Source: a virus
Taxonomy: Duplodnaviria > Heunggongvirae > Uroviricota > Caudoviricetes
IMG/VR virus record: IMGVR_UViG_2541047798_000006
Direction: 5' to 3' (one strand)
Length of the DNA stretch: 41,828 nt
Of the stretch, positions 7,022-40,192 are shown in pieces (within the stretch, counting starts at the first letter, position 1; each line of letters starts with the position of its first letter). A model generated the notes under the pieces. That model saw nothing but the letters and a program-made list of their open reading frames with translations, made no database searches and was not told where the DNA came from. The position numbers and the translations under genes are program-made.

Positions 7022-7693
7022 TCAGCGACCAATCACCACAACCTGACCACCGTCCCCTTCGTCTGCCGTGCTGATCTCCTGAGAAACCACGCGTGACCCC
7101 ACGCGCATTTCCCCGTACAGAACAGGCAGAACATTGCCCTGGGCAACCATGTTATCCAGTGAGGAGAAATAGGTGTTCTGCTTACCGTTATCCGTTGTCT
7201 GTGTACGGGGAGTTCTGGCTTTCGGTGCCAGCATCTGCGCCACACCACCGAGCACCATACTGGCACCGAGAGAAAACAGGATGCCGGTCATACCACCGGC
7301 CCCAATGGCTGCCCCCCATGCTGCAAGGGTGGCTCCGGCGGTAAAGAATGATCCGGCAATGGCGGCAGCCCCCAGGACAATCTGGAATACGCCACCTGAC
7401 TTGGCCCCGGCGACTCTGGGAACAATATGAATCACAGCGCCATCAGGCAGAGTCTCATGTAACTGCGCCGTTAACCCGGACGTGCTGACGTACCGCCCGG
7501 CAATCCGTACCTGATACCAGCCGTCGCTCAGTTTCTGACGAAACGCAGGGAGCTGTGTGGCCAGCGCCCGGATGGCTTCGGCCCCCGTTTTCACACGAAG
7601 GTCGATGCGGCGGCCAAATCGTTGTAAATCCCCGTAAAGGCAGATGCGTGCCATGCCCGGTGACGCCAGAGGGAGTGTGTGCGTCGCTGCCAT
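7022..7693 (-). CDS. I: tail assembly protein I
   Basis: 223 aa, MAATHTLPLASPGMARICLYGDLQRFG... Confidence 0.9.
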   Translation of the reverse strand: MAATHTLPLASPGMARICLYGDLQRFGRRIDLRVKTGAEAIRALATQLPAFRQKLSDGWYQVRIAGRYVSTSGLTAQLHETLPDGAVIHIVPRVAGAKSGGVFQIVLGAAAIAGSFFTAGATLAAWGAAIGAGGMTGILFSLGASMVLGGVAQMLAPKARTPRTQTTDNGKQNTYFSSLDNMVAQGNVLPVLYGEMRVGSRVVSQEISTADEGDGGQVVVIGR

Positions 7694-9038: not shown

Positions 9039-9367
9039 CAGTTCACCACCTGTTCAAACTCTGCGCTGAACTCAACACGCAACATACTGACCCGCGACGA
9101 CCATTTTGCGCAGGTCACCTTTATCTGCCGCCAGTCATAAGGCGGCGTCCACAGAAAGGCTTTCCAGCCTCCGTGCTCTGCCAGAAACGATTCCAACGCC
9201 GTGGCCTCCCAACGGGGGACAGAAATCGTCACGCTGTACGTTTTCAGGTTGGCATTCAGCCCGGCAGGCGCGCGCTGGGAATAGCCATCACCAAAGCGCA
9301 CCTTCCTGACGGAAGGAGCCGAAGCCACATCCATACCGGGTTTCACTTTCCAGCGGAAGGTTTTCAT
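9038..9367 (-). CDS. M: tail tip protein M
   Basis: 109 aa, lambda M-like. Confidence 0.9.
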   Translation of the reverse strand: MKTFRWKVKPGMDVASAPSVRKVRFGDGYSQRAPAGLNANLKTYSVTISVPRWEATALESFLAEHGGWKAFLWTPPYDWRQIKVTCAKWSSRVSMLRVEFSAEFEQVVN

Positions 9368-11863
9368 CGTCCACCTCCGGAGAACAGACCACCATCACGC
9401 ATCTGCCCGGTCACAACATCCATTGCCGCCTTGCGGGCCATGTCATACACTGCCTTCAGCATCTGTGGACCTGGCAGACCATTCGTGCCGTCGTTATTAA
9501 TCACCACATGGTTATTCTGCTCAAACTTCCCGGACGCCTGCGACCGGCTGTCCGCCAGGCTGCCCGGTGTACCGACATAACCACCGGTGGCATAGCCGCG
9601 CATCAGCCGGTAGAGATTCCCCACGCCAATCCGGCTGGTTGCCTCCTTCGTGAAGACAAATTCACCACGGTGAACAATCCCCGCTGGCTCATATTTGCCG
9701 CCGGTTCCCGTAAATCCCCCTGTCGCAAAATGGAATTTCGCCGCAGCTGCCTGAATGGCTGTACCGCCTGACGCGGATGCGCCGCCACCAACAGCACCGC
9801 CAATGGCGCTGCCGATACTCCCGACAATCCCCACCATTGCCTGCTTAAGCAGAATTTCTGTCATCATGGACAGCACGGATCGGGTGAAGCTGCGCCAGTT
9901 TTGTTCACTGCCGGTCAGCATCGCCGCCATATTCTGTGCAATACCATCAAAGGTCTGCGTGGCTGCACTTTTAACCTGCGACATACTGTCCGTGGCGCTC
10001 TCTTCCCACTCACTCCAGCCTGACTTGAGGCCTGCCATCCAGCTCCCGCGAAGCTGGTCTTCAGCTGCCCAGGTCTTTTTCTGCTCTGACATGACGTTAT
10101 TCAGCGCCAGCGGATTATCGCCATACTGTTCCTTCAGACGCTGTTCCGTGGCGTCCCGCGCTGCCTGCCGGTCAGTCAGCCCCCGGTTTTTCGCATCAAT
10201 GGCTGCCCGTTTTGCCCGTTGTTGCTGTGCGAATTTATCCGCCTGCTGCGCCAGCGCATTCAGGTGCTCCTGATACGTGACCTTATCGCCAAGTGCAGCC
10301 AGCTGGCGTTTGTACTCCAGCGTCTCGTCTTTATGCGCCAGCAGGGATTTCTCCTGTGCGGACAGCTGGCGACGTTGTGCCGCCTCCTCCAGTACCGCGA
10401 ACTGACTTTCTGCCTTCCACAAATCCCGGCGCTGCTGGCTGATTTTCTCATTCGCTGTCTTCCTGACGATCGCCCGCAGACACCTTCACGCCGGACTGTT
10501 TCGGCTTTTTCAGCGTCGCTTCATAATCCTTTTTCGCCGCCGCCATCAGCGTGTTGTAATCTGCCTGCAGGATTTTCCCGTCTTTCAGTGCCTTGTTCAG
10601 TTCTTCCTGACGGGCGGTATATTTCTCCAGCGGCGTCTGCAGCCGTTCGTAAGCCTTCTGCGCCTCTTCGGTATATTTCAGCCGTGACGCTTCGGTATCG
10701 CTCTGCTGCTGCGCATTTTTGTCCTGTTGACTCTGCTGTTCAGCCTTCTTTCGGGCGGCTTCAAGCGCAAGACGGGCCTTTTCACGATCATCCCAGTAAC
10801 GCGCCCGCGCTTCATCGTTAACAAAATAATCATCCTTGCGCAGATTCCAGATGTCGTCCGCTTTCTTAAACGCAGCCTCTGCCTTAATCAGCATCTCCTG
10901 AGCGGTATCAGGACGACCAATATCCAGCACCGCATCCCACATGGATTTGAATGCCCGTGCTGTCCTGTCTGCCCAGGTTTCCAGCGTGCCCATGTTCTCT
11001 TTCAGGCGTCGGGTCTGGTCATCAAACCCTTTCGTTGCGGCCTCGTTCGCCGCCTGCAATGCCCCGGCTTCATCGCCGGAACGCTGCAACTGAGCAACAT
11101 ACGCAATCTGCTCCGCCGTCACGTTATGGAACTGGCGCGCCATCGCCGTCAGCCCCGACGTCGGGTCAGTGGTCAGCTTCCCGAAGGCTTCAGCGACCTT
11201 GTCCACCTCCACACCGGATGCAGAGGAGAAACGCGCCACACTCTGGCTGATGGACGCAATCTGAGCCTCACCGCTTACCCCCGCCTTAACCAGTGCACTG
11301 AGTGACTCGCTGGTCTGGTTAAACGTCAGCCCTGCAGCCTGCCCGGCTCTGGACAGGACCAGCATACGATCTGCCGTCAGTCCCGCCTGATTACCGGAAA
11401 GGACCAGCGTTTTGTTGAAATCGGACAGGGTTGAGTTACCCTGATACCAGGCATACGCCAGCGCACCGGTCGCCACCGCCAGCGAGGTGGCCCCGACCAT
11501 CGGCAGGGTGATCGCACCGGCAAGCCCCCGGAACATGGGGATCATCCCGCCGAAGGAGTCCTTAACCTGACCACCCTGTTGCAGCAGGATCAGCCACGGG
11601 CTTTGCCCGCCTGCAAGCTGCGTGGCCACGTCGGTGAACTGTGCAGGCAGCATACGCATGGCGGCTTTATACTGCCCGACGGAAATCCCCGCTTTCTGTG
11701 CAGCCAGCGCCTGTCGGCTCAGCGACTGTTCAACGACTGCCGCTGTTTTTTTCGCATCACTTTCCGTACCGGAAAAATGACGCCTGACTCTGGCCATCTG
11801 CTCGTCAAATCTGGCCGCATCCAGACTTAAATCAACGACCAGATCGCCTACCGGTTCAGCCAT
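9364..11863 (-). pseudogene. H: tail tape measure protein H, split into two reading frames
   Basis: N-terminal piece 10448..11863 (471 aa, ends TGA at 10448) and C-terminal piece 9364..10422 (352 aa, TTG-initiated in the ORF track) are both lambda-H-like but in different frames; the second frame is open upstream to 10485. Confidence 0.7.
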
Positions 11864-24997: not shown

Positions 24998-25258
24998 TTA
25001 TGGTATACCGCGCCTCTGAACAGGGGCGCGTTTCTGGCAACAGCTCGTCCCCTTCACATAACCCGGCAGCAACATCCAGGAAGACCTGGCTGCTGCCTCA
25101 TAAAACTCCAGCGCGGCACCTTCAACACGGTCCAGCGAGATGTCCAGGTCAAAAATTTCACCGTCAAAGCGTTTTTTGTCCCGTAACGCTAAAGTTACCG
25201 TAACTTTATTCTCAAAATTGCGGATCCCTTTCACAATCAGTTCATAGTTTTGAGTCAT
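24998..25258 (-). CDS. small protein between holin and endolysin (possibly YdfR/DUF1327-like, maybe C-terminally altered)
   Basis: 86 aa MTQNYELIVKGIRNFENKVTVTLALRDKKRFDGEIFDLD...; GGAG SD directly after the S stop; family from memory. Confidence 0.45.
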   Translation of the reverse strand: MTQNYELIVKGIRNFENKVTVTLALRDKKRFDGEIFDLDISLDRVEGAALEFYEAAARSSWMLLPGYVKGTSCCQKRAPVQRRGIP

Positions 25259-25785: not shown

Positions 25786-25989
25786 TCACTCCGGCTCAGT
25801 TGCACCGCTGACCACCACATCACCTTCTGCTGCAATCGCCTGCATCAGGGTATAAGGGGTTATGGCCACCGGACTACCAAACGGCTGCCAGCCCTCTTTC
25901 AGTTTATGTGTCAGCTTTTCCGCAAGATCTGACGGCGGCGCCGCCCTGACAACATCATAGTGTTTAAATGCCATGGTTCTTTCCACCAT
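25786..25989 (-). CDS. small hypothetical protein upstream of lysis cassette (possibly DUF1737-like)
   Basis: 67-aa ORF ...MAFKHYDVVRAAPPSDLAEKLTHKLKEGWQPFGSPVAITPYTLMQAIAAEG... Confidence 0.45.
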   Translation of the reverse strand: MVERTMAFKHYDVVRAAPPSDLAEKLTHKLKEGWQPFGSPVAITPYTLMQAIAAEGDVVVSGATEPE

Positions 25990-26570: not shown

Positions 26571-26604
26571 GGAGTTTACTCACATCTGACAAAATCAATA
26601 TAAA

Positions 26605-26626
26605 CAGCCCCTCCGGAGAGGGGCTG
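26605..26626. terminator. candidate bidirectional terminator hairpin between convergent cargo ORFs
   Basis: cagcccctc-cgga-gaggggctg 9-bp perfect stem. Confidence 0.45.
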
Positions 26627-27017
26627 GAGAGTGGCGCTATGTGCCATTGCATGGTGCCGGGTGCCTCCCGGTGAATTCAGTACCAGCACCTGAATCCGCG
26701 ATTATCCCATATACCTACTCGCTGATTGCCCCACCGCACAGGGGGATTCACCATGCCAGTTTCTTTTAACAAACTCCCCGCAAACCAGACAACAGTCAAC
26801 CGCCTGAATTGTGAAGTATTTAAAAATTTCTCCCGCTAACTGATACCCGGCTAACAGTCTGGCGTTTTCTTTTTCAGCAACGGGAAAGCAACAACCACCA
26901 CACCCGCCACCAGCACACCGTCAGCCAGCACTGACATTATCCGGCTGCTGCAATGCCATTCACAAAAACAGTAAGCAATCACTTTTTACCGTAACAGGTG
27001 ATAATCCAGATATGTAT

Positions 27018-27481: not shown

Positions 27482-27558
27482 TGGCGCGCTGTACTGGATT
27501 CGAACCAGTGACCGATTGCTTAGAAGGCAATTGCTCTGTCCGGCTGAGCTAACAACGC
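27482..27558 (-). tRNA. tRNA-Arg (anticodon UCU)
   Basis: 77 nt; acceptor GCGTTGT/ACAGCGC, T-loop GGTTCGAATCC, anticodon loop CTTCTAA, 3' GCCA. Confidence 0.85.
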
Positions 27559-27571
27559 TGAATACCGATAA

Positions 27572-27652
27572 TGGACCGCCATCGGGGACCCGCCCCCCGC
27601 ACCAACAACCCTGTTATCGTGTCGTCTGCTCTTCCTGATAAGCTAATGGCGG
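27572..27652 (-). other. degenerate tRNA-like element between the two tRNAs
   Basis: acceptor CCGCCAT/ATGGCGG with T-CCA tail, D-stem GCTT/GAGC, T-stem CGGGG/CCCCG, but non-canonical T-loop GGCGGGT and no foldable anticodon arm. Confidence 0.3.
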
Positions 27653-27659
27653 TTTGTGA

Positions 27660-27735
27660 TGGTGGCCCTTGCTGGATTTGAACCAGCGACCTGGCGATTA
27701 TGAGTCGCTCGCTCTCACCACTGAGCTAAAGGGCC
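27660..27735 (-). tRNA. tRNA-Ile2-like (anticodon CAU; could be read as Met)
   Basis: 76 nt; closely resembles E. coli ileX from memory; anticodon loop CTCATAA. Confidence 0.85.
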
Positions 27736-30479: not shown

Positions 30480-30731
30480 TTATTCTTCTGCAAAAGCTGA
30501 AAAGCCTGCTTTTATTCCGATCTCTTTCAGTGCCTGTAATGAAGTGACAAACTCACCTTCGCGCAAGATAAATCCGTCTGTCACTCGACCATCCACAAAA
30601 TTAATTAACGCAGCCCCATTCTTTCGCAAACACATAATGCGGTAATGACTAACAAGATTTCCATTTTCAACGCACACAGCATAGAGGCCATCTTCACAAA
30701 AAATTTTACGCAGTTCTTCGATGTTCATCAT
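30480..30731 (-). CDS. rem: Rem-like small protein
   Basis: 83 aa, placed next to hok as rem is next to hokD in Qin (from memory). Confidence 0.5.
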   Translation of the reverse strand: MMNIEELRKIFCEDGLYAVCVENGNLVSHYRIMCLRKNGAALINFVDGRVTDGFILREGEFVTSLQALKEIGIKAGFSAFAEE

Positions 30732-30846
30732 CAGAATCCTTCCGGATAATTAGCTCTCCCCTTTAAGGGACCATCCCTCTTATCCCTGCGCGCTACTTAA
30801 GTATTTTTGATTCTATTCCGGCACCGTCCAGAACTTCAAACGCGTG

Positions 30847-30946: not shown

Positions 30947-31102
30947 TTACTCCTCAGGTTCGTAAGCTGTGAAGACAGCGACCTCCGTCTGGCCGGTTCG
31001 GATTCGTACCTCGCAGAGGTCTTTCCTCGTTACCAGTGCCGTCACTATGACGGTTAAACAGATGACGATCAGGGCGATTAACATCGCCTTTTGCTGCTTC
31101 AT
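30947..31102 (-). CDS. hok: Hok-family type I toxin (HokD/RelF-like)
   Basis: 51 aa MKQQKAMLIALIVICLTVIVTALVTRKDLCEVRIRTGQTEVAVFTAYEPEE. Confidence 0.85.
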   Translation of the reverse strand: MKQQKAMLIALIVICLTVIVTALVTRKDLCEVRIRTGQTEVAVFTAYEPEE

Positions 31103-31650
31103 AGCCTGCTTCTCCTTGCCTTTCGGCACGTAAGAGGCTAACCTACATGTGTCTAGCATGAAATTGGCCTCAGATTAATGTTAAGCGTCTTGCAGGACGC
31201 GTAATGTTAACTGGGGCTTTTCTCTATCTGCCGTTGGTGTTATGCCCGAGGCAGATAGCCTCAAGCACCCGCAGCCATTCTACTTAACTACCGTTACCTC
31301 GCCAATGTGAAATCAGTCAGAAAGGCGATCCATAAGAACAATAGCAAGACAATAAATCGCCATTACAGCCGTAATAGCCAGCGCACATTTGAGAACCAGC
31401 ACCACAACCTCCTGTATTGGACGTACACCAGTCCTGATGAATATGAGGCTGTCTCGTCAGTGATTCAATACAACTATTGGGTATAGTTTCTCTGATTTTT
31501 TCTGTGGAAATGGGGCTCAACCACTAGTCATTTAATACGCAAAGTCCGATACAAGCTAACCTTCTAGTCCGCTTTGAGCGAAAAGCGGACGTTGGAAGTT
31601 TAAAACTCGCGAACTACTCAGCGTCCATTGATGCGTATTGTGTAACGTGA

Positions 31651-32295
31651 TTAACCACAGATGATATTGAAACGTTCTCCGGAAATCTTGACCATAATGT
31701 CAGACAGTTCGCTGACGGCATGGGCTTCAGATGATCCCAGAGCGTCAGGCTGAACAGCTATTACCGAAGCTCCACTTGCCAGCCCTGCTTTTATACCCGC
31801 AGATGCATCCTCAAATACCACGCATTCACCAGGCTCAAGGCCCAAAGCCAAAGCTGCTTTGATGTAACCCTCGGGACTTGGTTTTCCCGTCATTACATCT
31901 TCTGCACACACCATTACTATGGGTAAGGGGAGATTAGCCGCTTTCATCCTGTTTTCTGCAAGCATTCTGCCTGCAGAAGTGACAAGTGCCCAGCTATCCG
32001 GTGGCAGTTTTGATAAGAGTGCAGCGGCCCCTTTTACTTCAGTAACGCCTTCTGTCATGTTGATTTCAACCTCTTCGAGTGAGGCCGCGATTTTATTGGT
32101 TTTCTCACCTGCACCAATAAAATGCGTCAGTGTATCAATCGTTTGCCGCCCGTGTGCGTAAGCAATCACAGCCTGAGTATCAAGACCGTATTCTGCACAA
32201 AAATCTCTCCAGACGCTTTCCACTACGGCTGTTGAATCAACCAGCGTACCGTCCATATCGAATAAAAAACCCTTAGCGTTGAATATCATTGCCAT
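31651..32295 (-). CDS. HAD-superfamily hydrolase (phosphatase-like)
   Basis: 214 aa, DxDGTL-type motif FDMDGTLVDS near the N-terminus. Confidence 0.8.
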   Translation of the reverse strand: MAMIFNAKGFLFDMDGTLVDSTAVVESVWRDFCAEYGLDTQAVIAYAHGRQTIDTLTHFIGAGEKTNKIAASLEEVEINMTEGVTEVKGAAALLSKLPPDSWALVTSAGRMLAENRMKAANLPLPIVMVCAEDVMTGKPSPEGYIKAALALGLEPGECVVFEDASAGIKAGLASGASVIAVQPDALGSSEAHAVSELSDIMVKISGERFNIICG

Positions 32296-32318
32296 TCCTT
32301 AATGGTTGCAGAAGAAAG

Positions 32319-32957
32319 TTAATCAAACCATGTTTTTTCATCACCTTTCGCTACTCTCAGGCTGACAGCAATCTGCTCAGGCACAATTCTTGAAAGCGAC
32401 AATTCAGGCAGGTCGTTGACATCAAAAAAATCAGCATCGAGTGACTCATGGCTGATTGACAGGCTGCCACCTACTTCTTCACAGAGAAAAATCAGCTTGT
32501 AAACATGCCAGGGTAAAGGCGGATGGCCGTGAAGATTACGATCCCAAACTCCCAATAGTTTAGTCACTCTGACTTTTAATCCGGTTTCTTCTTCGACTTC
32601 TCGACGCACAGCTTCAGAAGGTGTATCTCCAACATCTGCCCATCCGCCAGGAAGACTCCATAATCCATCTGCAGCCTCTTTCACCATCAGAATACGATTA
32701 TTACGCAGGATAAACGCACGCACATCTGTTTTGGGCGTCGCGTAACCCGTTTCCGATACATGAAACAAATCATTGCGGCTAATATCAAACTGCGAACTCA
32801 GCAGTCCAGCGGCAATTTCACGCAAGGCTTCATAGCGTTCCTTGTCAAAGACGTCTTTTGAATAGGTCAGGCCTGACTGCGCGAGGGCCTTTAGTCTCTG
32901 GGCAACAAAAATAAGCTTTTCTTGGGTCAACACTTCAGACATGTTTTTCATCTTCAT
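32319..32957 (-). CDS. NUDIX hydrolase with N-terminal extension
   Basis: 212 aa; Nudix box GGWADVGDTPSEAVRREVEEETGL; 23 nt upstream of the HAD gene on the same strand. Confidence 0.8.
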   Translation of the reverse strand: MKMKNMSEVLTQEKLIFVAQRLKALAQSGLTYSKDVFDKERYEALREIAAGLLSSQFDISRNDLFHVSETGYATPKTDVRAFILRNNRILMVKEAADGLWSLPGGWADVGDTPSEAVRREVEEETGLKVRVTKLLGVWDRNLHGHPPLPWHVYKLIFLCEEVGGSLSISHESLDADFFDVNDLPELSLSRIVPEQIAVSLRVAKGDEKTWFD

Positions 32958-33595: not shown

Positions 33596-34561
33596 TTATC
33601 CTCTGAAACCAGGCGGAATTTCTGTATCCGGTTCAGAAATATGATTCACACAACGCTGTACAGGTGAACGTCCCAGGCGGATGACCAGTTCGTCCCATTT
33701 TTCGCGGAGTTTTGACGGGCTCATGATGTTTTTTACCCAGAATGGATCCCGCTGTACCCGACCAAACATTTCGCAAATTTGTCTGTGGCTTCTGCCATCC
33801 AGCATCCGCATTGTGCGCACGTCATTGGCCCAGGCTGTCCAGTTAGGCTCTTTTGGTCGCATGATCTCTCCATCGTCGCTGGCAGCCTGTTCGTAAAGGT
33901 TCACGATCCGCCCCCAAATCCACTGCGCACACGCCAAATCCTCCCTGCTACCCCACTGGCGTTTTTTCACACTAAACACAACCGCGTCGGGGTTCCGGGT
34001 TAAAAAATCCTGTTCAGTCGTCTGCGGGTCCGGTTGCGAAGCTTCCGGACGAAAAGTGTTTTTATTCTCTGTAGTAATCTCTGTTGTATTCTCTGTAAGA
34101 TCATCAGGCCATTTTGACCCGATGACATTGGGTCGTTTTGAACCAATGGAGCGTTTCATTTTGACCTCTTCCATCGTGTCATTTTGACCTGATGGAGCGG
34201 CGCATTTTGAACCGATGGATTCGTTCAATTTGCCACCATCTAAAAGCTCGCTCCCATAGTTGATCGTGTAGAAATTGGTCATATCGCGCTTTGATTTATT
34301 GAGCTTTTCACAACGCAAAAGCCCCTGCGTTTTCAGACTTGCAAACGCGCGTTTTAACGTTGACTCTGACCAGAATGGGAACTGTTCCAGCCATTGTTCC
34401 GTTGTGTTATAAATCCAGCGAACACCATCACATTCCATACCGGAGTTGGTATCTCTCAACCAGTAGTGCAGTTGTTGCAAAACAATGGCTTCGTTTAAGC
34501 CGATTTTCATTGCCAGCTGCGTGTTTATAACCAGTGGGCGTTCAGCAAAAAGAAGACTCAT
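33596..34561 (-). CDS. phage replication protein (replisome organiser N-domain, DnaT-like C-domain)
   Basis: N-terminus ...MKIGLNEAIVLQQLHYWL...; start trimmed to the ATG at 34561. Confidence 0.6.
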   Translation of the reverse strand: MSLLFAERPLVINTQLAMKIGLNEAIVLQQLHYWLRDTNSGMECDGVRWIYNTTEQWLEQFPFWSESTLKRAFASLKTQGLLRCEKLNKSKRDMTNFYTINYGSELLDGGKLNESIGSKCAAPSGQNDTMEEVKMKRSIGSKRPNVIGSKWPDDLTENTTEITTENKNTFRPEASQPDPQTTEQDFLTRNPDAVVFSVKKRQWGSREDLACAQWIWGRIVNLYEQAASDDGEIMRPKEPNWTAWANDVRTMRMLDGRSHRQICEMFGRVQRDPFWVKNIMSPSKLREKWDELVIRLGRSPVQRCVNHISEPDTEIPPGFRG

Positions 34562-35051
34562 AATTCCATCCAGCTTTTTGTTGGTATTGCTGTCGATACG
34601 CAAGCTTGAAAGCAATTGCTTTTTCTATAAGTTCGTCAGTTTCACGATCTACAACGGCAGGATCTGCAAAAAGCAGTCCAGATTCCACCACATCGCCATA
34701 TTCTTTATTTAACCCGGCGATCATGTACGTAATACTTTTTTCACGATACAACCTGAAATCACTAATCCGGATAGCCTCCATAATTGCAGGCACTAGCGCT
34801 GTGAACTTTTCACGCTTATCCCTGGTGTCGATAGCCTTCCAGCGTTCGAATATCTTCACTCGATTAACGCTAAGCGCTCGCTGATCAACCGCGCCACCTT
34901 CATATGTGACACGCTGAACATCGATGTTCGGGCGCTCTTTCAAAGCCCAGAATGCTTCAGTGATTAATATCGTCGCCTGCTCCTGTGTCATTCCTGGTCG
35001 ACATATCCAGGCATCCAGAGCCTCACGAGCCTGTTCAGGAGTGATTTTCAT
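34542..35051 (-). CDS. YdaT-like protein (CII-position regulator)
   Basis: 169 aa; WKAIDTRDKREKFTALVPAIMEAI resembles the YdaT segment W..ET..REK...L.PAI (from memory). Confidence 0.45.
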   Translation of the reverse strand: MKITPEQAREALDAWICRPGMTQEQATILITEAFWALKERPNIDVQRVTYEGGAVDQRALSVNRVKIFERWKAIDTRDKREKFTALVPAIMEAIRISDFRLYREKSITYMIAGLNKEYGDVVESGLLFADPAVVDRETDELIEKAIAFKLAYRQQYQQKAGWNYESSFC

Positions 35052-35262
35052 TGTTCAACCGCCCCGTCCGCTTCGTCTTACGATATTCGTCATAAACTTT
35101 GGGATCATACTGAAGCTCCCCGCCAGATGCCTCCTGTAGACGCATCGCGCGACCTTCAGGAACCAGTATCCCCCAGGCAGCAACACTTGCCAGTCTCACT
35201 CCTGCGGCATTGGCAAGCTTTGTTTTGCTGCCAAAAAAAGTAATTGCGTCAACTTTAAGCAT
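35035..35262 (-). CDS. Cro-like HTH regulator (DicC/YdaS-like)
   Basis: MLKVDAITFFGSKTKLANAAGVRLASV...EGRAMRLQEASGGELQYDPKVY; divergent from the repressor; GAGGGGG SD. Confidence 0.7.
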   Translation of the reverse strand: MLKVDAITFFGSKTKLANAAGVRLASVAAWGILVPEGRAMRLQEASGGELQYDPKVYDEYRKTKRTGRLNNENHS

Positions 35263-35275
35263 CAAAGCCCCCTCT

Positions 35276-35293
35276 TGTTAGACTTTTCTAACA
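35276..35293. promoter_or_regulatory. candidate operator palindrome in the repressor/Cro intergenic region
   Basis: TGTTAGActttTCTAACA perfect 7-bp arms; related half-sites at 35786-35805. Confidence 0.5.
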
Positions 35294-35342
35294 TTATTGT
35301 GCGCGGGATACCTAAGTCAAGAAAAATTAGAATTACCTAACT

Positions 35343-35750
35343 ATGGATACAAGAACCCTAGGCCAGCGAGTTCTGGCGCGACGAAAAGAATTACGCTTAA
35401 CACAACGAGAAGCTGCGCGCCTCGCTGGAGTTGCTCACGTCACAATTTCACAATGGGAAAGAGACGAAACCCAGCCAGTCGGAAAACGATTGTTTGCTTT
35501 AGCGGATGCTCTGAAGTGCTCACCTACATGGCTAATGTTTGGTGATGAAGACAAGGCACCAGTGCCTGCACAAGAACTTCATGTGGAAACAGAGCTAACT
35601 CCCAACCACAAAGAATTGATCGAATTATTCGATGCTCTTCCATCTTCCGAGCAGGAAGCCTTGCTGTCTGAAATGCGCGCAAGAGTAGAAAACTTCAACA
35701 AACTCTTCGAAGAAATGCTTAAAGCGCGTAAAAATAAATCAATAAAATAA
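35343..35750 (+). CDS. prophage repressor, DicA-like (HTH-XRE, no S24 peptidase domain)
   Basis: 135 aa ...LTQREAARLAGVAHVTISQWERDETQPVGKRLFALADALKCSPTWLMFGDED...MRARVENFNKLFEEMLKAR. Confidence 0.8.
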   Translation: MDTRTLGQRVLARRKELRLTQREAARLAGVAHVTISQWERDETQPVGKRLFALADALKCSPTWLMFGDEDKAPVPAQELHVETELTPNHKELIELFDALPSSEQEALLSEMRARVENFNKLFEEMLKARKNKSIK

Positions 35751-35785
35751 CATTCTTTTCAAGTGATTAGTTGCGCCCACTCTTT

Positions 35786-35805
35786 TTGTTAGACCAACCT
35801 AACAA
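35786..35805. promoter_or_regulatory. second operator-like palindrome downstream of repressor gene
   Basis: TTGTTAG-accaac-CTAACAA; a third partial copy at about 35823-35838. Confidence 0.4.
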
Positions 35806-35918
35806 AAAACACTTGCCTCTCATGTTAGGTTATTCTAAATTACTTTCCATCAAGACACCGCACGGTGTTCTCAGCAAACAGTTCCGCTACCCCGGCGTTA
35901 AGGGGAAATGAGGTCAGC

Positions 35919-36074
35919 ATGGATACTATCGATCTTGGCAACAACGAATCTCTGGTATGCGGCGTGTTTCCCAACCAAGACGGCACGTTCACCGCGATGA
36001 CGTATACCAAAAGCAAAACGTTTAAAACCGAAGCTGGCGCGCATCGCTGGCTGGAAAGAAATTCAGGTGAGTGA
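35919..36074 (+). CDS. YdfA-like small protein
   Basis: 51 aa MDTIDLGNNESLVCGVFPNQDGTFTAMTYTKSKTFKTEAGAHRWLERNSGE. Confidence 0.6.
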   Translation: MDTIDLGNNESLVCGVFPNQDGTFTAMTYTKSKTFKTEAGAHRWLERNSGE

Positions 36075-36075
36075 T

Positions 36076-36204
36076 ATGGATTTCGACGCAATCATGGAAA
36101 AGGCTTACGAAGAATACTTCGAAGGCCTTGCCGAAGGCGAAGAAGCTCTCAGCTTCAGCGAATTTAAACAGGCGCTTTCCAGTTCGGCAAAAGCTAACAA
36201 CTGA
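36076..36204 (+). CDS. YdfB-like small protein (42 aa, not in ORF track)
   Basis: MDFDAIMEKAYEEYFEGLAEGEEALSFSEFKQALSSSAKANN read directly after the ydfA-like stop. Confidence 0.5.
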   Translation: MDFDAIMEKAYEEYFEGLAEGEEALSFSEFKQALSSSAKANN

Positions 36205-36358
36205 GAGGTTTATGATGGAATTGAGAGTTTGTTTCAAACTCTCAATAAACCAGAGGCAGGTAAGGAGCGTTAAATTATTGCTTGAAAGCAATAAGATCAC
36301 TCAATCTCACCGCTATAGGCATTCCATCTGAGCATGAGGGTACGCCAGAAAATATCGT

Positions 36359-36829
36359 TTATGTGCAAAACACAGTATGGATTTTCGTCGGGAAGGAGTT
36401 GCCCTTCCATGGGGAGCAAAATATTAGCAGATACCAGTTTTTTATATCAGAATCATTGCGTACAGCATGGATCACAGGATAGTTCCTCGATAATGCCGTA
36501 ATAAGAATTTTTTTCTGACCCGCAGTCAAGGAATCGATAACTGCATTGATATGACTGATTGTTTTTTGTTCTCTTGTATTGTTCCGGTGACTTCGCCAGA
36601 CCTTACGAAGAAATAAAGCTAAACGTTGGAGATTTATAGCCAGCACAAAAGAAAAGGCAAAAACGAATACCGGGTAAATATAAGGAATGCTGATTTTGTC
36701 TTGAACATACTCCGGTACAGAATCAGGCATAAAGAGCAATATCAAAACAAAGATAATAAGCATATACATAAGGCGCTCTAAGGGTTCGTTACTGAATAAC
36801 TTGCTCAACAAGCCGAATACATCAGGCAT
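36359..36829 (-). CDS. hypothetical membrane protein, antisense to the early-left operon
   Basis: 156-aa ORF, two N-terminal hydrophobic segments, AT-rich, GAGAG SD-like sequence upstream. Confidence 0.35.
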   Translation of the reverse strand: MPDVFGLLSKLFSNEPLERLMYMLIIFVLILLFMPDSVPEYVQDKISIPYIYPVFVFAFSFVLAINLQRLALFLRKVWRSHRNNTREQKTISHINAVIDSLTAGQKKILITALSRNYPVIHAVRNDSDIKNWYLLIFCSPWKGNSFPTKIHTVFCT

Positions 36830-37140
36830 ATTAATAACTCTCTACTGTAAGGGTATTAAAATGCTATCACAGACTCTCGCTGTAGGGGTATAGCCGAGAC
36901 CACCGAGCCTGAAGTGGTAAAAAGACAGGCACACAACACGAAAGCGCACGGCGAGGCTGTTAGTTCATAAATGGTCTGTCGTTAAATTTTCGTCGACCGT
37001 GCGCTTCCGGTTGTGGCAATCCGCGAAATGGCGCGGCGGTAAGTATGGCGGGGTTATTCCTTCCCCGTTGAGGACACCGGGTTGTCAGGTTGACCATACG
37101 CTTAAGTGACAACCCCGCTGCAGCGCCCTCTGTTATCAAT

Positions 37141-37198
37141 TTTCTGGTGACGTTTGGCGGTATCAGTTTTACTCCGTGACTGCTCTGCCGCCCTTTTT
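37141..37198 (+). ncRNA. dicF: DicF sRNA (ftsZ-targeting)
   Basis: tttctggtgacgtttggcggtatcagttttactccgtgactgctctgccgccctttttaa matches the DicF sequence from memory. Confidence 0.8.
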
Positions 37199-37372
37199 AA
37201 AGTGAATTTTGTGATGCGGTGAATGCGGCTGAGCGCACGCGGAACAGTTAAAACCGAAAACTGTGTTATGGGTGGATTCTCTGTATCCGGCGTTAATTGT
37301 TAACTGGTTAACGTCACCTGGAGGCACCAGGCACCGCATCAACAAAGTTCATTTGTAAAAATGGAGATAATT

Positions 37373-37594
37373 ATGATTGCTCATCACTTCGGAACTGATG
37401 AGATTCCTCGTCAGTGCGTGACTCCCGGTGATTATGTTATTCATAAAGGAAGAACATATATTGCTTCGGTAAACAACATTAAAAAACAACGGCTCTATAT
37501 TCGTGATTTTTCCACACAACACTGTATTAAGGAAACCATGATTAAAGTCTTCCTTGGTCGTGATGGTTTACCTGTAAAAGCAGAGTCATGGTGA
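37373..37594 (+). CDS. hypothetical small protein in the dicB position
   Basis: 73 aa from the ATG at 37373 (GGAGA SD); not similar to DicB as remembered. Confidence 0.5.
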
Positions 37595-37717: not shown

Positions 37718-40192
37718 ATGAGTAAAGTCTTTATTTGCGCCGCCATTCCTGACGAACAGGCAATTAAGGAAGAAGGTGCAGTTGCTGTAGCCACTGCCAT
37801 CGAAGCTGGTGACGAACGCCGCGCCCGAGCCAAATTTACCTGGCAATTCCTGGAGCAATATCCGGCTGCTCAGGACTGTGCTTATAAATTTCTTGTCTGC
37901 GAGGATAAACCCGGCATGGCCCGCCCTGCCCTTGATTCCTGGGATACCGAATATATGCAGGAAAACCGCTGGGATGAGGGATCGTCTTCCTTTGTCCCGG
38001 TCGAACCAGAGCCGAATACAGAAATTGTTAACTTTAATCAGTTATCCGACGACAAACAGGCCGCTGTTCTCGTTAAGTTTGGCGCACATGAAAACGTCAC
38101 CGTGGATATGGTCATCAACGCAAGCGGGCTTCTTGGCGATGACGACATGATGACCTTTGACGGACACCTCGCAGAGGCAATTATCCGGACTAAAGAAATT
38201 AACGCCATGTATCCGGAACGTCAGATTGAATACATCAACGATGCCAGACGTGATTTAAAACCAACCGCCAAATGGCCCGACGTTCAGGCATATTTTCTCG
38301 ACCGTAAAAAACGCATGGAAAAGGAGCGCAAAGAAGGTGGTGCATATGCTTCTGTTGTTGATCTTGCCCGTGCCAGCGTCAACCGGCAGAACACTGAAAA
38401 CTCAGTAGCAAAAATCAACCCTGTCACTACTGCCATTCGTCGCGAATACAAGCAGACATGGAAAACACTGGATGATGAACTGGCCTATGCTCTGTGGCCT
38501 GGGGACATTGATGCCGGAAACATTGACGGCAGCATCCATCGCTGGGCAAAAAATGAAGTTATCGACAACGACCGCGAAGACTGGAAGCGTATCTCGGCAT
38601 CAATGCGCAAACAGCCTGATGCCCTTCGCTACGACCGCCAGACTATTTTTGGCCTTGTCCGTGAACGTCCGATCGACATTCACAAAGACCCTGTGGCACT
38701 GAACAAATACATTACTGAATACCTGACTACAAAGGGCGTGTTTGAAGATGAAGGAAGAAATCAGAGCGCAACTGATACTCTCTCGTCGCCAGTACCAGAA
38801 ACTGATGCAGTGGAAACGGCAATTCCGGACAACGAAAAAACCGAATGCAAAGTGGAAATCGAACCATCTGTAGAGCGTGAGGGGCCGTTCTACTTCCTCT
38901 TCACCGACAAGGATGGCGAAAAATACGGTCGCGCAAACAAACTTTCTGGTCTGGATAAGGCACTGGCTGCCGGGGCTACTGAAATCACGAAAGAAGAATA
39001 TTTCGCCCGCAAAAACGGTACATACTCAGGTTCACAACAAAATACTGGTGCATCTGACACGACCGCACAACCAGAGCCGGTAAAAGTTACCGCTGACGAA
39101 GTAAACAAAATTATGCAGGCAGCCAATATCAGCCAGCCTGACGCCAATCAGCTGCTTGCAGTATCACGTGGTGAATTTGTTGCAGGGATTAGCGACCCGA
39201 ACGATCCGAAATGGGTGAAGGGGATTGAAACCCGCGATTCTGTGAACCAGAACCAGCAAGAAACGGAACAGAACGACCAGAAAGCGGAACAAAACAGCCC
39301 AAATGCGTTACAAAACGAGCCAGAAACGAAACAACCTGAGCCAGTAGCGCAACAGGAAGCGGAAAAAGTCTGCACCGCCTGTGGTCAGACCGGCGGCGGC
39401 AACTGCCCTGATTGTGGTGCGGTGATGGGCGACGCAACATACCAGGAAACATTCGATGAAGAGAATCAGGCTGAAGTTCAGGAAAATGATCCGGAGGAAA
39501 TGGAAGGCGCTGAACATCCACACAAGGAGAATGCTGGCAGCGCTCAGGACCACGCCAGCGATAATGAAACTGGCGAGACGGCAGATTCCTTAATTGCGGT
39601 GAACGGTCATCACGTTATCACATCCACCAGCAGAGTGTGGCACCATCTGATGATCGACCTTGAAACGATGGGAACAAATCCTGATGCGCCAATCAACTCT
39701 ATTGGCGGTAAATTCTTTGATCCCGAAACCGGAGAGATGGGGCCGGAATTTAGCAAGACCATCGATCTGGATACTGCTGGCGGAGTCATTGATCGTGACG
39801 TCATTAAATGGTGGCTTAAGCAATCACGCGAGGCGCAATCTGCCATTCTGACCGATGAAATCCCGTTAGATGATGCACTACTGCAATTGCGGGAATTTAT
39901 CGACGAAAACTCCGGTGAATTTTTTGTTCAGGTCTGGGGAAATGGAGCCAACTTCGACAACGTGATTTTACGCCGTTCATACGAACGGCAGGGGATCCCC
40001 TGCCCGTGGCGTTATTGCAACGATCGCGATGTGCGCACAATCGTTGAGCTGGGAAAAACCCTGAACTTCGATGCCAGAACGGATATTCCATTCGACGGTG
40101 AGCGCCACAATGCACTTGATGACGCCCGTTACCAGGCAAAATACGTTTCAGCTATCTGGCAAAAACTGATCCCGAGTCAGGCTGATTTTTAA
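37718..40192 (+). CDS. large early-region protein with C-terminal DEDDh (DnaQ-like) 3'-5' exonuclease domain
   Basis: 824 aa; motifs MIDLETMG, WGNGANFDNVILR, HNALDDARYQ; central CTACGQTGGGNCPDCG zinc ribbon; acidic/Gln-rich linker. Confidence 0.7.
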   Translation: MSKVFICAAIPDEQAIKEEGAVAVATAIEAGDERRARAKFTWQFLEQYPAAQDCAYKFLVCEDKPGMARPALDSWDTEYMQENRWDEGSSSFVPVEPEPNTEIVNFNQLSDDKQAAVLVKFGAHENVTVDMVINASGLLGDDDMMTFDGHLAEAIIRTKEINAMYPERQIEYINDARRDLKPTAKWPDVQAYFLDRKKRMEKERKEGGAYASVVDLARASVNRQNTENSVAKINPVTTAIRREYKQTWKTLDDELAYALWPGDIDAGNIDGSIHRWAKNEVIDNDREDWKRISASMRKQPDALRYDRQTIFGLVRERPIDIHKDPVALNKYITEYLTTKGVFEDEGRNQSATDTLSSPVPETDAVETAIPDNEKTECKVEIEPSVEREGPFYFLFTDKDGEKYGRANKLSGLDKALAAGATEITKEEYFARKNGTYSGSQQNTGASDTTAQPEPVKVTADEVNKIMQAANISQPDANQLLAVSRGEFVAGISDPNDPKWVKGIETRDSVNQNQQETEQNDQKAEQNSPNALQNEPETKQPEPVAQQEAEKVCTACGQTGGGNCPDCGAVMGDATYQETFDEENQAEVQENDPEEMEGAEHPHKENAGSAQDHASDNETGETADSLIAVNGHHVITSTSRVWHHLMIDLETMGTNPDAPINSIGGKFFDPETGEMGPEFSKTIDLDTAGGVIDRDVIKWWLKQSREAQSAILTDEIPLDDALLQLREFIDENSGEFFVQVWGNGANFDNVILRRSYERQGIPCPWRYCNDRDVRTIVELGKTLNFDARTDIPFDGERHNALDDARYQAKYVSAIWQKLIPSQADF

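Follow-up and report, generated by a model that had tools for sequence, protein, structure and literature searches.

The closest described relatives of the locus analysed here are the dicA-dicC-dicBp switch of the cryptic prophage Qin of Escherichia coli K-12 and its antirepressor Rem (Bejar and Bouche, work cited in PMC10448788; Yun et al. 2012, PMC3441716; Ragunathan et al. 2023, PMC10448788). Our subject is a regulatory region at positions 35035-35840 of a stretch of 41,828 nucleotides (nt), hereafter the window, which is the IMG/VR virus record IMGVR_UViG_2541047798_000006 (Caudoviricetes). This region is very probably a Qin-type dicC/dicA immunity switch of a lambdoid prophage, built like those of lambda and P22, with a DicA repressor that does not autocleave and with Rem or the instability of DicA flipping the switch. 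The DicA/DicC/Rem system is already known: its architecture, operator sequence, lack of autocleavage and antirepressor have all been published. The present copy is an uncharacterised DicA allele within a far more complete Qin-like prophage.

In K-12, DicA represses the dicB promoter (dicBp) 22-fold and Rem derepresses it 165-fold; dicBp is not induced by mitomycin C, and the switch is also flipped by heat and urea (PMC10448788). Spontaneous switching, seen in about 1% of K-12 cells, is independent of recA and of rem and depends on DicC (PMC10448788). DicA occupies the K-12 operator Oc, TTGTTAGTCATAACTAACAA, in vivo, and one A-to-C substitution is enough to abolish this binding (PMC3441716). 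The K-12 dicA mRNA is leaderless (PMC4681348 Fig. 2A), like lambda cI mRNA from PRM. A second point of comparison is provided by the Gifsy-1, -2 and -3 repressors GfoR, GtgR and GfhR with their LexA-controlled antirepressors (Lemire et al. 2011, PMC3121763), and DicA was explicitly grouped with these short non-cleavable repressors (PMC3121763). A third is provided by the YdaS and YdaT proteins, which have been reinterpreted as Cro and CII equivalents (PMC5917428, PMC8630535, PMC9986795), YdaT being described as a functional CII equivalent (PMC9986795).

We read the sequence from 34300 to 37000 directly and listed all of its open reading frames (ORFs). Several E. coli chromosomes are 100% identical to the window, for example NZ_CP082774.1, in which the insertion point is a truncated ydfJ beside ydfI-ydfZ-rspR-ydfG-dcp, the attachment site of K-12 Qin. 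The PGAP labels in the identical genomes are Cro/CI or DicC, HTH protein, YdaT family, YdfB, DicB fragment, Kil and Rem. The window and Qin share the ydfJ insertion site, the gene order ydaT/ydfX-dicC-dicA-ydfA-ydfB...DicF, the architecture of the 135-residue repressor, the TGTTAG/CTAACA half-sites at the same four positions, and a rem gene that lies in the same relative place and is 96% identical. They differ in that the two DicA proteins are only 56% identical (75/135 residues) while their neighbours are 85-97% identical, and in that the site upstream of the leftward -35 is a perfect palindrome in the window and degenerate in K-12. The window also has a full-length ydaT where K-12 has the truncated ydfX, sieB in place of ydfC, a truncated dicB and a kil gene, and it retains the replication, lysis and virion genes lost from Qin. 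Because the neighbouring genes are much closer to those of K-12 than DicA is, the region is a Qin-type locus in which the repressor allele has been exchanged, as is typical of lambdoid mosaics. An earlier note on this DNA, made from its sequence alone, had called the region an immunity switch with a DicA-like repressor, and the layout agrees with that. Its account was essentially right, and it had seen neither the prior characterisation of the system nor the prophage's rem gene.

The same kind of mosaicism is seen in the immunity cassette of the functional phage mEp460_ev081 (6748-7460 and 1704-1955, corresponding to 35035-35750 and 30480-30731 of the window). The phage has an identical Rem (83/83), a YdaT identical at 165 of 173 positions and an identical leftward leader, but it differs in its DicA, which is 50% identical, and in its operators, TTGAG-N4-CTCAA. 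One recombination boundary between the two cassettes is at the leftward promoter's -10 and another is inside dicC.

The strongest of the other explanations is that the switch is a domesticated host module, as has been proposed for K-12 Qin, which is no longer a lysis-lysogeny control and holds DicF, Kil, SieB, hok/sok and sitABCD, toxic or useful genes, under tight conditional control in a prophage unable to make virions. The Qin switch is still functional in a cryptic prophage (PMC10448788), and the prophage in the window carries lesions: the tail tape-measure gene (9364-11863, minus strand) is annotated as frameshifted, two small late-region genes (25079-25258 and 25789-25974, both minus strand) are partial, and dicB is a 28-codon fragment. 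It may thus be defective despite its complete look. Apart from these lesions, however, it does look complete, with integrase, excisionase, replication, Q, lysis, terminase, head and tail genes, and the tape-measure frameshift may have arisen in sequencing or be a programmed one. The same architecture and the identical Rem are moreover found in the functional mEp460_ev081. We regard domestication as possible but rather unlikely, and it would be compatible with the Rem-responsive immunity switch proposed here because it concerns what the switch controls and not how the switch works. The window is a near-complete Qin.

The two genes transcribed away from the repressor occupy the cro and cII positions, ahead of replication gene O. 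The earlier note's Cro-like gene divergent from the repressor and followed by a YdaT-like gene are borne out by the P22_Cro match of the first product and the YdaT_toxin and PHROG 163 matches of the second (Table 1). The N-terminal part of the YdaT product is identical to K-12 YdfX at 91 of 96 positions, and ydaT is the full-length version of the truncated ydfX. The Rac module RacR/YdaS/YdaT and the cI/cro/cII-like module of CP-933P share this layout, in which a short repressor gene faces away from a Cro-like gene and ydaT comes next in the cII position, and the repressor mRNA of those modules is leaderless; RacR itself belongs to another repressor family. The site described for CP-933P YdaT, TTGATT-N6-AATCAA, is not enriched in the window (19 matches against 21.5 expected). 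The Pfam names YdaS_toxin and YdaT_toxin could be taken to mean that the three genes are a toxin-antitoxin-like module with the helix-turn-helix (HTH) protein as antitoxin or regulator, a suggestion that would draw on weak matches to YdaS_toxin (E=0.0012) and MqsA_antitoxin (E=0.002), both below the cut-off, and on the YdaT_toxin match (E=1.9e-6). That is very improbable: the Cro-like protein is matched far better by P22_Cro (E=5e-12) and the YdaT-like protein by PHROG 163 (E=5.5e-39), the genes stand in cro and cII positions before gene O, and the literature has recast YdaS and YdaT as Cro and CII equivalents (PMC5917428, PMC8630535, PMC9986795).

Everything found on the repressor itself is consistent with a C2-type DNA-binding domain joined to a short helical domain. 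Pfam matched the 135-residue protein with HTH families alone (HTH_3, E=1.5e-14) and did not match Peptidase_S24. Residues 1-71 match the DNA-binding domain at the N-terminus of P22 C2 (E=1.3e-18), and in tblastn the similarity to full-length P22 c2 ends at repressor residue 80. We found 226 DicA homologues across the Enterobacterales, and the 120 of these that were listed are about 133-150 residues long with HTH Pfam domains only, none of the 120 having an S24 domain. In the family alignment, the HTH is conserved, the Pro-rich linker is variable and a C-terminal segment of about 45 residues is conserved. The AlphaFold model (pLDDT 85.6) is all helix without strands, with the HTH bundle at 6-66 and further helices at 87-97 and 101-132, whereas the S24 fold is all-beta. 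Foldseek superimposes the model on the N-terminal domain of P22 c2 with a template modelling (TM) score of 0.97 and a root-mean-square deviation (rmsd) of 0.7 A. These comparisons (Pfam, homologues, P22 c2, AlphaFold and Foldseek) concur with the earlier description of a 135-residue HTH repressor without an S24 domain. As judged from sequence and model, the repressor has no autocleavage apparatus and carries a short, apparently oligomerising helical domain in place of the S24 peptidase.

The likeness to the P22 immC region therefore has a clear limit. The DicA N-domain is homologous to that of C2 (about 45-50% identity), DicC is of the P22_Cro family, and in both systems 18-bp palindromic operators flank divergent promoters. 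In contrast, C2 has 216 residues, an S24 autocleavage domain and RecA inducibility, where DicA has about 50 helical residues instead, and the half-site sequences differ, that of P22 being ATTTAAG. The whole-chain analogues of the model in Foldseek are SinR/SinI of Bacillus subtilis and the phi106 repressor with AimX, each a repressor inactivated by a small protein. They share with DicA the combination of HTH_3 and a short helical oligomerisation domain targeted by a small protein antagonist, but there is no detectable sequence homology outside the HTH and the rmsd over the full length is about 10 A, and they may serve as an analogy for the action of Rem rather than as a sign of family membership.

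An inter-domain cleavage site is absent: the linker 67-86 (GDEDKAPVPAQELHVETELT) holds neither Ala-Gly nor Cys-Gly. One Ala-Gly dipeptide, at residues 28-29, could be proposed as a cryptic site through which the repressor is SOS-cleaved and the prophage induced by RecA as lambda is, but it sits inside the HTH and is not kept across the family, the protein has no S24 domain and no beta structure, and the 65 residues after the HTH leave no room for one. With K-12 dicBp not induced by mitomycin C and K-12 switching independent of recA (PMC10448788), we consider such cleavage scarcely credible. The earlier expectation that RecA-mediated autocleavage is unlikely agrees with the published K-12 data.

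The operator set is the second pillar of the assignment as a DicA-type switch. The half-sites in the window are identical to those of K-12 Oc. Exact GTTAG-N6-CTAA matches occur at four loci in the 41.8-kb window against 0.108 expected, at least four being reached in none of 2000 dinucleotide shuffles, and all four sit in the two regulatory regions of the switch; one of them, Oa, is an exact match on the minus strand. An unbiased repeat finder groups the same four sites as one family. The half-site search across the prophage that the earlier note had proposed is meaningful only in the paired 18-bp form. Elsewhere in the prophage, including near rem, Q and sieB, no further operators were found, the four one-mismatch matches outside the switch being set against 4.5 by chance. 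The TGTTAG repeats had been read as operators, a reading upheld by their identity to the half-sites of the DicA-bound K-12 Oc (PMC3441716) and by a phylogenetic footprint. Of the set, the earlier note had three sites and missed the fourth, Oa.

The footprint used 11 Enterobacterales loci found with the DicA protein, leaving out L011-L013, which look frameshifted or poorly assembled, and Campylobacter L014-L025, in which only a 34-residue stretch matched. The four operator positions are the same across the 11 loci. Loci of Escherichia, Citrobacter and Buttiauxella retain the half-sites with 6-bp spacers that are free to vary; in Enterobacter, Pantoea and Erwinia, the half-site becomes CTTAG. 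Oc with a variable spacer is conserved in seven loci, Oa is conserved in all the Enterobacterales loci examined, and leftward site 1 aligns with the K-12 site TGTTAGctatagCATACA. Conserved half-sites with variable spacers are the pattern expected of real operators. The idea that the palindromes are chance features of AT-rich intergenic DNA, to which the unenriched bare TGTTAG hexamer (16 found, 13.8 expected) lends some colour, can be set aside for practical purposes given four paired sites against 0.108 expected with none in 2000 shuffles, positions conserved across genera with variable spacers, and half-sites equal to those of a mutation-validated K-12 operator.

Two further sequences were considered as operators. 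A possible weak middle operator, similar to Om and a half-site at best, lies 24-25 bp from both Oc and Oa, a spacing like that of lambda OR, and its conservation is confounded by the -35 hexamer that it overlaps. We rejected 35765-35782 (GATTAG...CCACTC), which lies upstream of the leftward promoter, as a third strong operator, since only 6 of its 12 half-site positions match. Among the four accepted sites, Oa (35324-35341) and leftward site 2 (35824-35841) are inverted near-copies, 89% complementary over 18 nt, and each of them holds TTTAGAAT when read in the direction of dicA; a second operator pair consists of Oc and 35787-35805. There are perhaps two operator classes, perfect palindromes preferred by DicA and sites that are preferred by DicC or embedded in promoters.

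The positions of the operators relative to the predicted promoters suggest how they would work. The predicted dicC promoter, the PR equivalent, has 10 of 12 consensus matches in our scan and the same position as the promoter underlined in PMC3441716 Fig. 5B. Oc covers about -7 to +11 of this promoter and would thus act by classic promoter occlusion. The earlier note had put this perfect palindrome over the Shine-Dalgarno sequence of the Cro-like gene; the palindrome is there, but it abuts the Shine-Dalgarno sequence (GAGGGGG, about 35267-35273) and its overlap is instead with the -10, by that element's last base, and with the predicted start site. The dicA start has no Shine-Dalgarno sequence and has TAGAAT 9 nt before its ATG, which is consistent with a leaderless transcript. 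On the other side of the repressor gene, the predicted dicB-type promoter aligns with the K-12 TTGACC-17-TAATCT upstream of ydfA. The two palindromes that the note had found at 35786-35840 are present, yet they are not merely downstream of the repressor gene: they bracket the -35 of TTGCCT-17-TAAATT, the next promoter, with ydfA, ydfB and DicF downstream.

We propose that DicA, a dimeric HTH repressor equivalent to CI and C2, would bind the 18-bp TGTTAG-N6-CTAACA operators. In the lysogen, DicA at Oc would cover -10/+1 of the rightward promoter and keep off dicC (Cro), ydaT (equivalent to CII), replication gene O and all that lies beyond them, and by analogy with K-12 it would also stimulate its own leaderless transcript. 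DicA at the two sites around the leftward -35 would keep the ydfA-ydfB-DicF-kil-exonuclease-xis-int operon off. DicC, once made, would be expected on the same operator set with a preference for Oa over the dicA start, turning dicA off, and this shut-off of dicA would give bistability. The window itself shows the gene identities, the domain architecture, the operators with their number, positions and conservation, the presence of rem and the absence of LexA boxes. That DicA binds Oc, represses dicC and dicBp and activates its own gene, that dicA mRNA is leaderless, that Rem acts as antirepressor and that bistability depends on DicC are results obtained with K-12 that presumably extend to the window by homology. 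The promoter positions, the role of Oa and the DicA surface targeted by Rem are what we infer ourselves.

The rem gene follows the hokD terminator (30878-30861) and is oriented rightward (nin-region), and neither a LexA box nor a DicA operator was found near its promoter-like site. A scan for LexA boxes (CTG-N10-CAG with at least 13/20 of the consensus), which recovered the 19/20 box of phage phiES15 as a positive control, found none in the window. A perfect CTGT-N8-ACAG inside the tape-measure gene was dismissed as irrelevant. The left prophage end, outside the window, has a single LexA-like site (13/20) inside sitC. Since the prophage has no LexA box, neither direct nor self-encoded indirect SOS induction is expected. 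The resemblance to the Gifsy repressors, which are also short (about 136 residues), non-cleavable and inactivated by a small antirepressor encoded away from the immunity region, stops at this point: the Gifsy antirepressor operons carry LexA boxes and are SOS-induced, whereas there is no LexA box before rem or elsewhere in the window prophage. With a DicA that does not autocleave and no LexA box, the switch would be flipped not by RecA but by Rem, by the instability of DicA (heat, urea, noise), or by both.

The earlier note had concluded from the lack of a LexA-like cleavage domain that SOS induction by RecA-mediated autocleavage is unlikely. The conclusion holds here, where there is no LexA box, barring an antirepressor that acts in trans from elsewhere in the genome, but the short repressor alone is not sufficient grounds, because the UV-induced Cronobacter phage phiES15 pairs a 134-residue DicA-type repressor with a 19/20 LexA box before a small ORF and a UmuD-like gene at the genome end. 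The box, TACTGTATCTATATACAGTA, stands before the 79-residue hypothetical ORF gp51 and the UmuD-like gene at 39118-39726, and gp51 is a candidate LexA-controlled antirepressor on the Gifsy paradigm. phiES15 also has an unannotated DicC-like cro ORF at 7341-7535.

Several points weigh against our interpretation of the locus. All experiments were done on K-12 DicA, and for an allele identical at 75 of 135 positions both operator binding and sensitivity to Rem are transferred by homology. The K-12 Om and Oa sequences, tested alone, bound no DicA (PMC3441716), and Oa might be bound by DicC instead, act cooperatively or consist mainly of promoter sequence. The predicted leftward promoter is only 8/12 to consensus, below the scan threshold. 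A LexA-controlled antirepressor encoded by another prophage in the same genome could act in trans (PMC3121763).

Table 1 Features of the dicC/dicA immunity switch and associated elements in the window
Feature	Position (strand)	Size or sequence	Remarks
dicA-type repressor	35343-35750 (+)	135 aa	P22-C2-like HTH at residues 6-66, Pro-rich linker, helical C-terminal domain at 87-132
dicC, Cro-like regulator	35035-35262 (-)	75 aa from ATG 35262; 76 aa if TTG 35265	Pfam P22_Cro E=5.2e-12; 64/75 identical to K-12 DicC
ydaT-like gene	34542-35051 (-)	169 aa	lambda cII position; Pfam YdaT_toxin E=1.9e-6; PHROG 163 'CII-like transcriptional activator' E=5.5e-39
Oc	35276-35293	TGTTAGActttTCTAACA (listed also as TGTTAGacttttCTAACA)	perfect palindrome, half-sites TGTTAG/CTAACA; from last base of dicC -10 to about +11
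Oa	35325-35342	AATTAGaattacCTAACT, AATTAG-aattac-CTAACT	ends 1 nt before dicA ATG; contains TAGAAT -10-like hexamer 35328-35333
Leftward site 1	35787-35804	TGTTAGaccaacCTAACA, TGTTAG-accaac-CTAACA	perfect half-sites, just upstream of the -35 of the PL-like promoter
Leftward site 2	35823-35840	TGTTAGgttattCTAAAT, TGTTAG-gttatt-CTAAAT	between -35 and -10 of the PL-like promoter
Possible weak middle operator (Om-like)	35300-35317	TGCGCG-ggatac-CTAAGT	7/12 half-site matches; overlaps dicC -35
Predicted dicC promoter (PR equivalent)	35320-35293 (-)	-35 TTGACT 35320-35315, 16-nt spacer, -10 AATAAT 35298-35293	10/12 consensus matches
Predicted dicB-type promoter (PL equivalent, dicBp)	35813-35841 (+)	-35 TTGCCT 35813-35818, 17-nt spacer, -10 TAAATT 35836-35841	
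rem, putative DicA antirepressor	30480-30731 (-)	83 aa	80/83 identical to K-12 Rem, 83/83 to mEp460_ev081 Rem
Promoter-like site upstream of rem	30810-30839 (-)	TTGAAG-18-TAGAAT	just past hokD terminator
Conserved early-left operon leader	35847-35918 (+)	about 70 nt	CCAUC, hairpin 1, CUCAG, A-rich spacer, GUUCCG, hairpin 2 with loop (G)GCGWYAA
ydfA	35919-36074 (+)		with ydfB, first genes of the operon behind the downstream operators; Pfam DUF1391; 48/51 identical to K-12 YdfA
ydfB	36076-36204 (+)		39/42 identical to K-12 YdfB
DicF small RNA gene	37142-37193 (+)		farther along the ydfA-ydfB operon; Rfam RF00039, 76.7 bits, full length

Downstream of the repressor gene lie ydfA (DUF1391), ydfB, an opposite-strand sieB, the DicF RNA, the dicB fragment, kil, a large exonuclease gene, xis and int. 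The sieB superinfection-exclusion gene (36359-36829, minus strand) is antisense to the leftward operon. The dicB fragment (37263-37346, plus strand) is followed by a Rac-type kil (37373-37594, plus strand), and DicF is intact. Directly upstream of rem is a hokD/sok type I toxin-antitoxin locus (30947-31270, minus strand). Between the replication genes and hokD, the rightward operon has genes for a HAD-family hydrolase and a NUDIX hydrolase (31651-32957, minus strand) that look like cargo genes; K-12 Qin has relBE, ydfV and flxA there. Between Q and the lysis genes, at 26596-26785 and 27482-27735 (both minus strand), are an STnc100 small RNA homologue (130 bits) and tRNA-Arg and tRNA-Ile genes. 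Past the tail-fibre genes, to the left of window position 1 (NZ_CP082774.1 2434000-2447500), the left prophage end carries the sitABCD iron/manganese transporter as cargo.

The stretch between the PL-like promoter and ydfA is a leader that is nearly invariant in Escherichia. Across five genera and seven viral contigs, its 12 distinct variants keep both hairpins with differing stem sequences, and the single-stranded motifs CCAUC, CUCAG, GUUCCG and the loop (G)GCGWYAA are kept whatever gene follows. Copies were found in L002 (7437-7508), L005 (8495-8572), L007 (1113-1185), L008 (8556-8630) and L009 (8568-8640). The viral loci are L061, L084, L089, L103, L111, L119 and L142, the seven genuine leaders among the matches listed for a loose pattern that matched at least 120 stretches. 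The leader has the position of lambda nutL and HK022 putL and resembles neither; a homology to HK022 putL/putR was rejected as there is no sequence resemblance, boxA is absent from the Escherichia version, and an Rfam search of the leader gave no match even at E<=10. Folded as a single sequence, the leader does no better than its shuffles (z=-0.37), and the MAFFT/RNAalifold consensus has only seven pairs, two of them with compensatory changes (hairpin 2). A literature search found no paper on the leader, which appears to be an undescribed conserved two-hairpin element whose structural support is statistically weak.

The sharing of Rem between heteroimmune repressors bears on how Rem recognises its target. 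An identical Rem (83/83) accompanies the window DicA with its TGTTAG-N6-CTAACA operators and the mEp460_ev081 DicA with its TTGAG-N4-CTCAA operators, and the 96%-identical K-12 Rem acts on K-12 DicA (PMC10448788). The DNA-recognition helices of these three DicA alleles are 44-47% identical, helices 4-5 are 60-76% identical and the C-terminal domain is 61-70% identical. Because the alleles that share Rem are most conserved outside the DNA-recognition helices, Rem is suggested to target the conserved C-terminal part of DicA. We tentatively put forward, as an idea somewhat short of even odds, that Rem is a master key: by recognising the conserved portion of DicA that does not bind DNA, namely helices 4-5 together with the helical C-terminal domain, it would inactivate heteroimmune DicA alleles without distinction.

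DicA-type loci are present in 4775 of 5426 complete genomes, with a median of two loci per E. coli genome and up to 10 in some. If the master key model is true, one non-SOS signal that induces Rem would co-induce several otherwise independent DicA-type prophages per E. coli genome. The value of the window is comparative: it is an almost complete Qin at the Qin site, with ydaT at full length, the genes for replication, lysis and virions, and sitABCD as cargo. Its divergent DicA allele, which keeps the K-12 half-sites, makes it a natural system for asking what triggers Rem, and the same system suits the question whether a large class of E. coli prophages is under the control of non-SOS induction.

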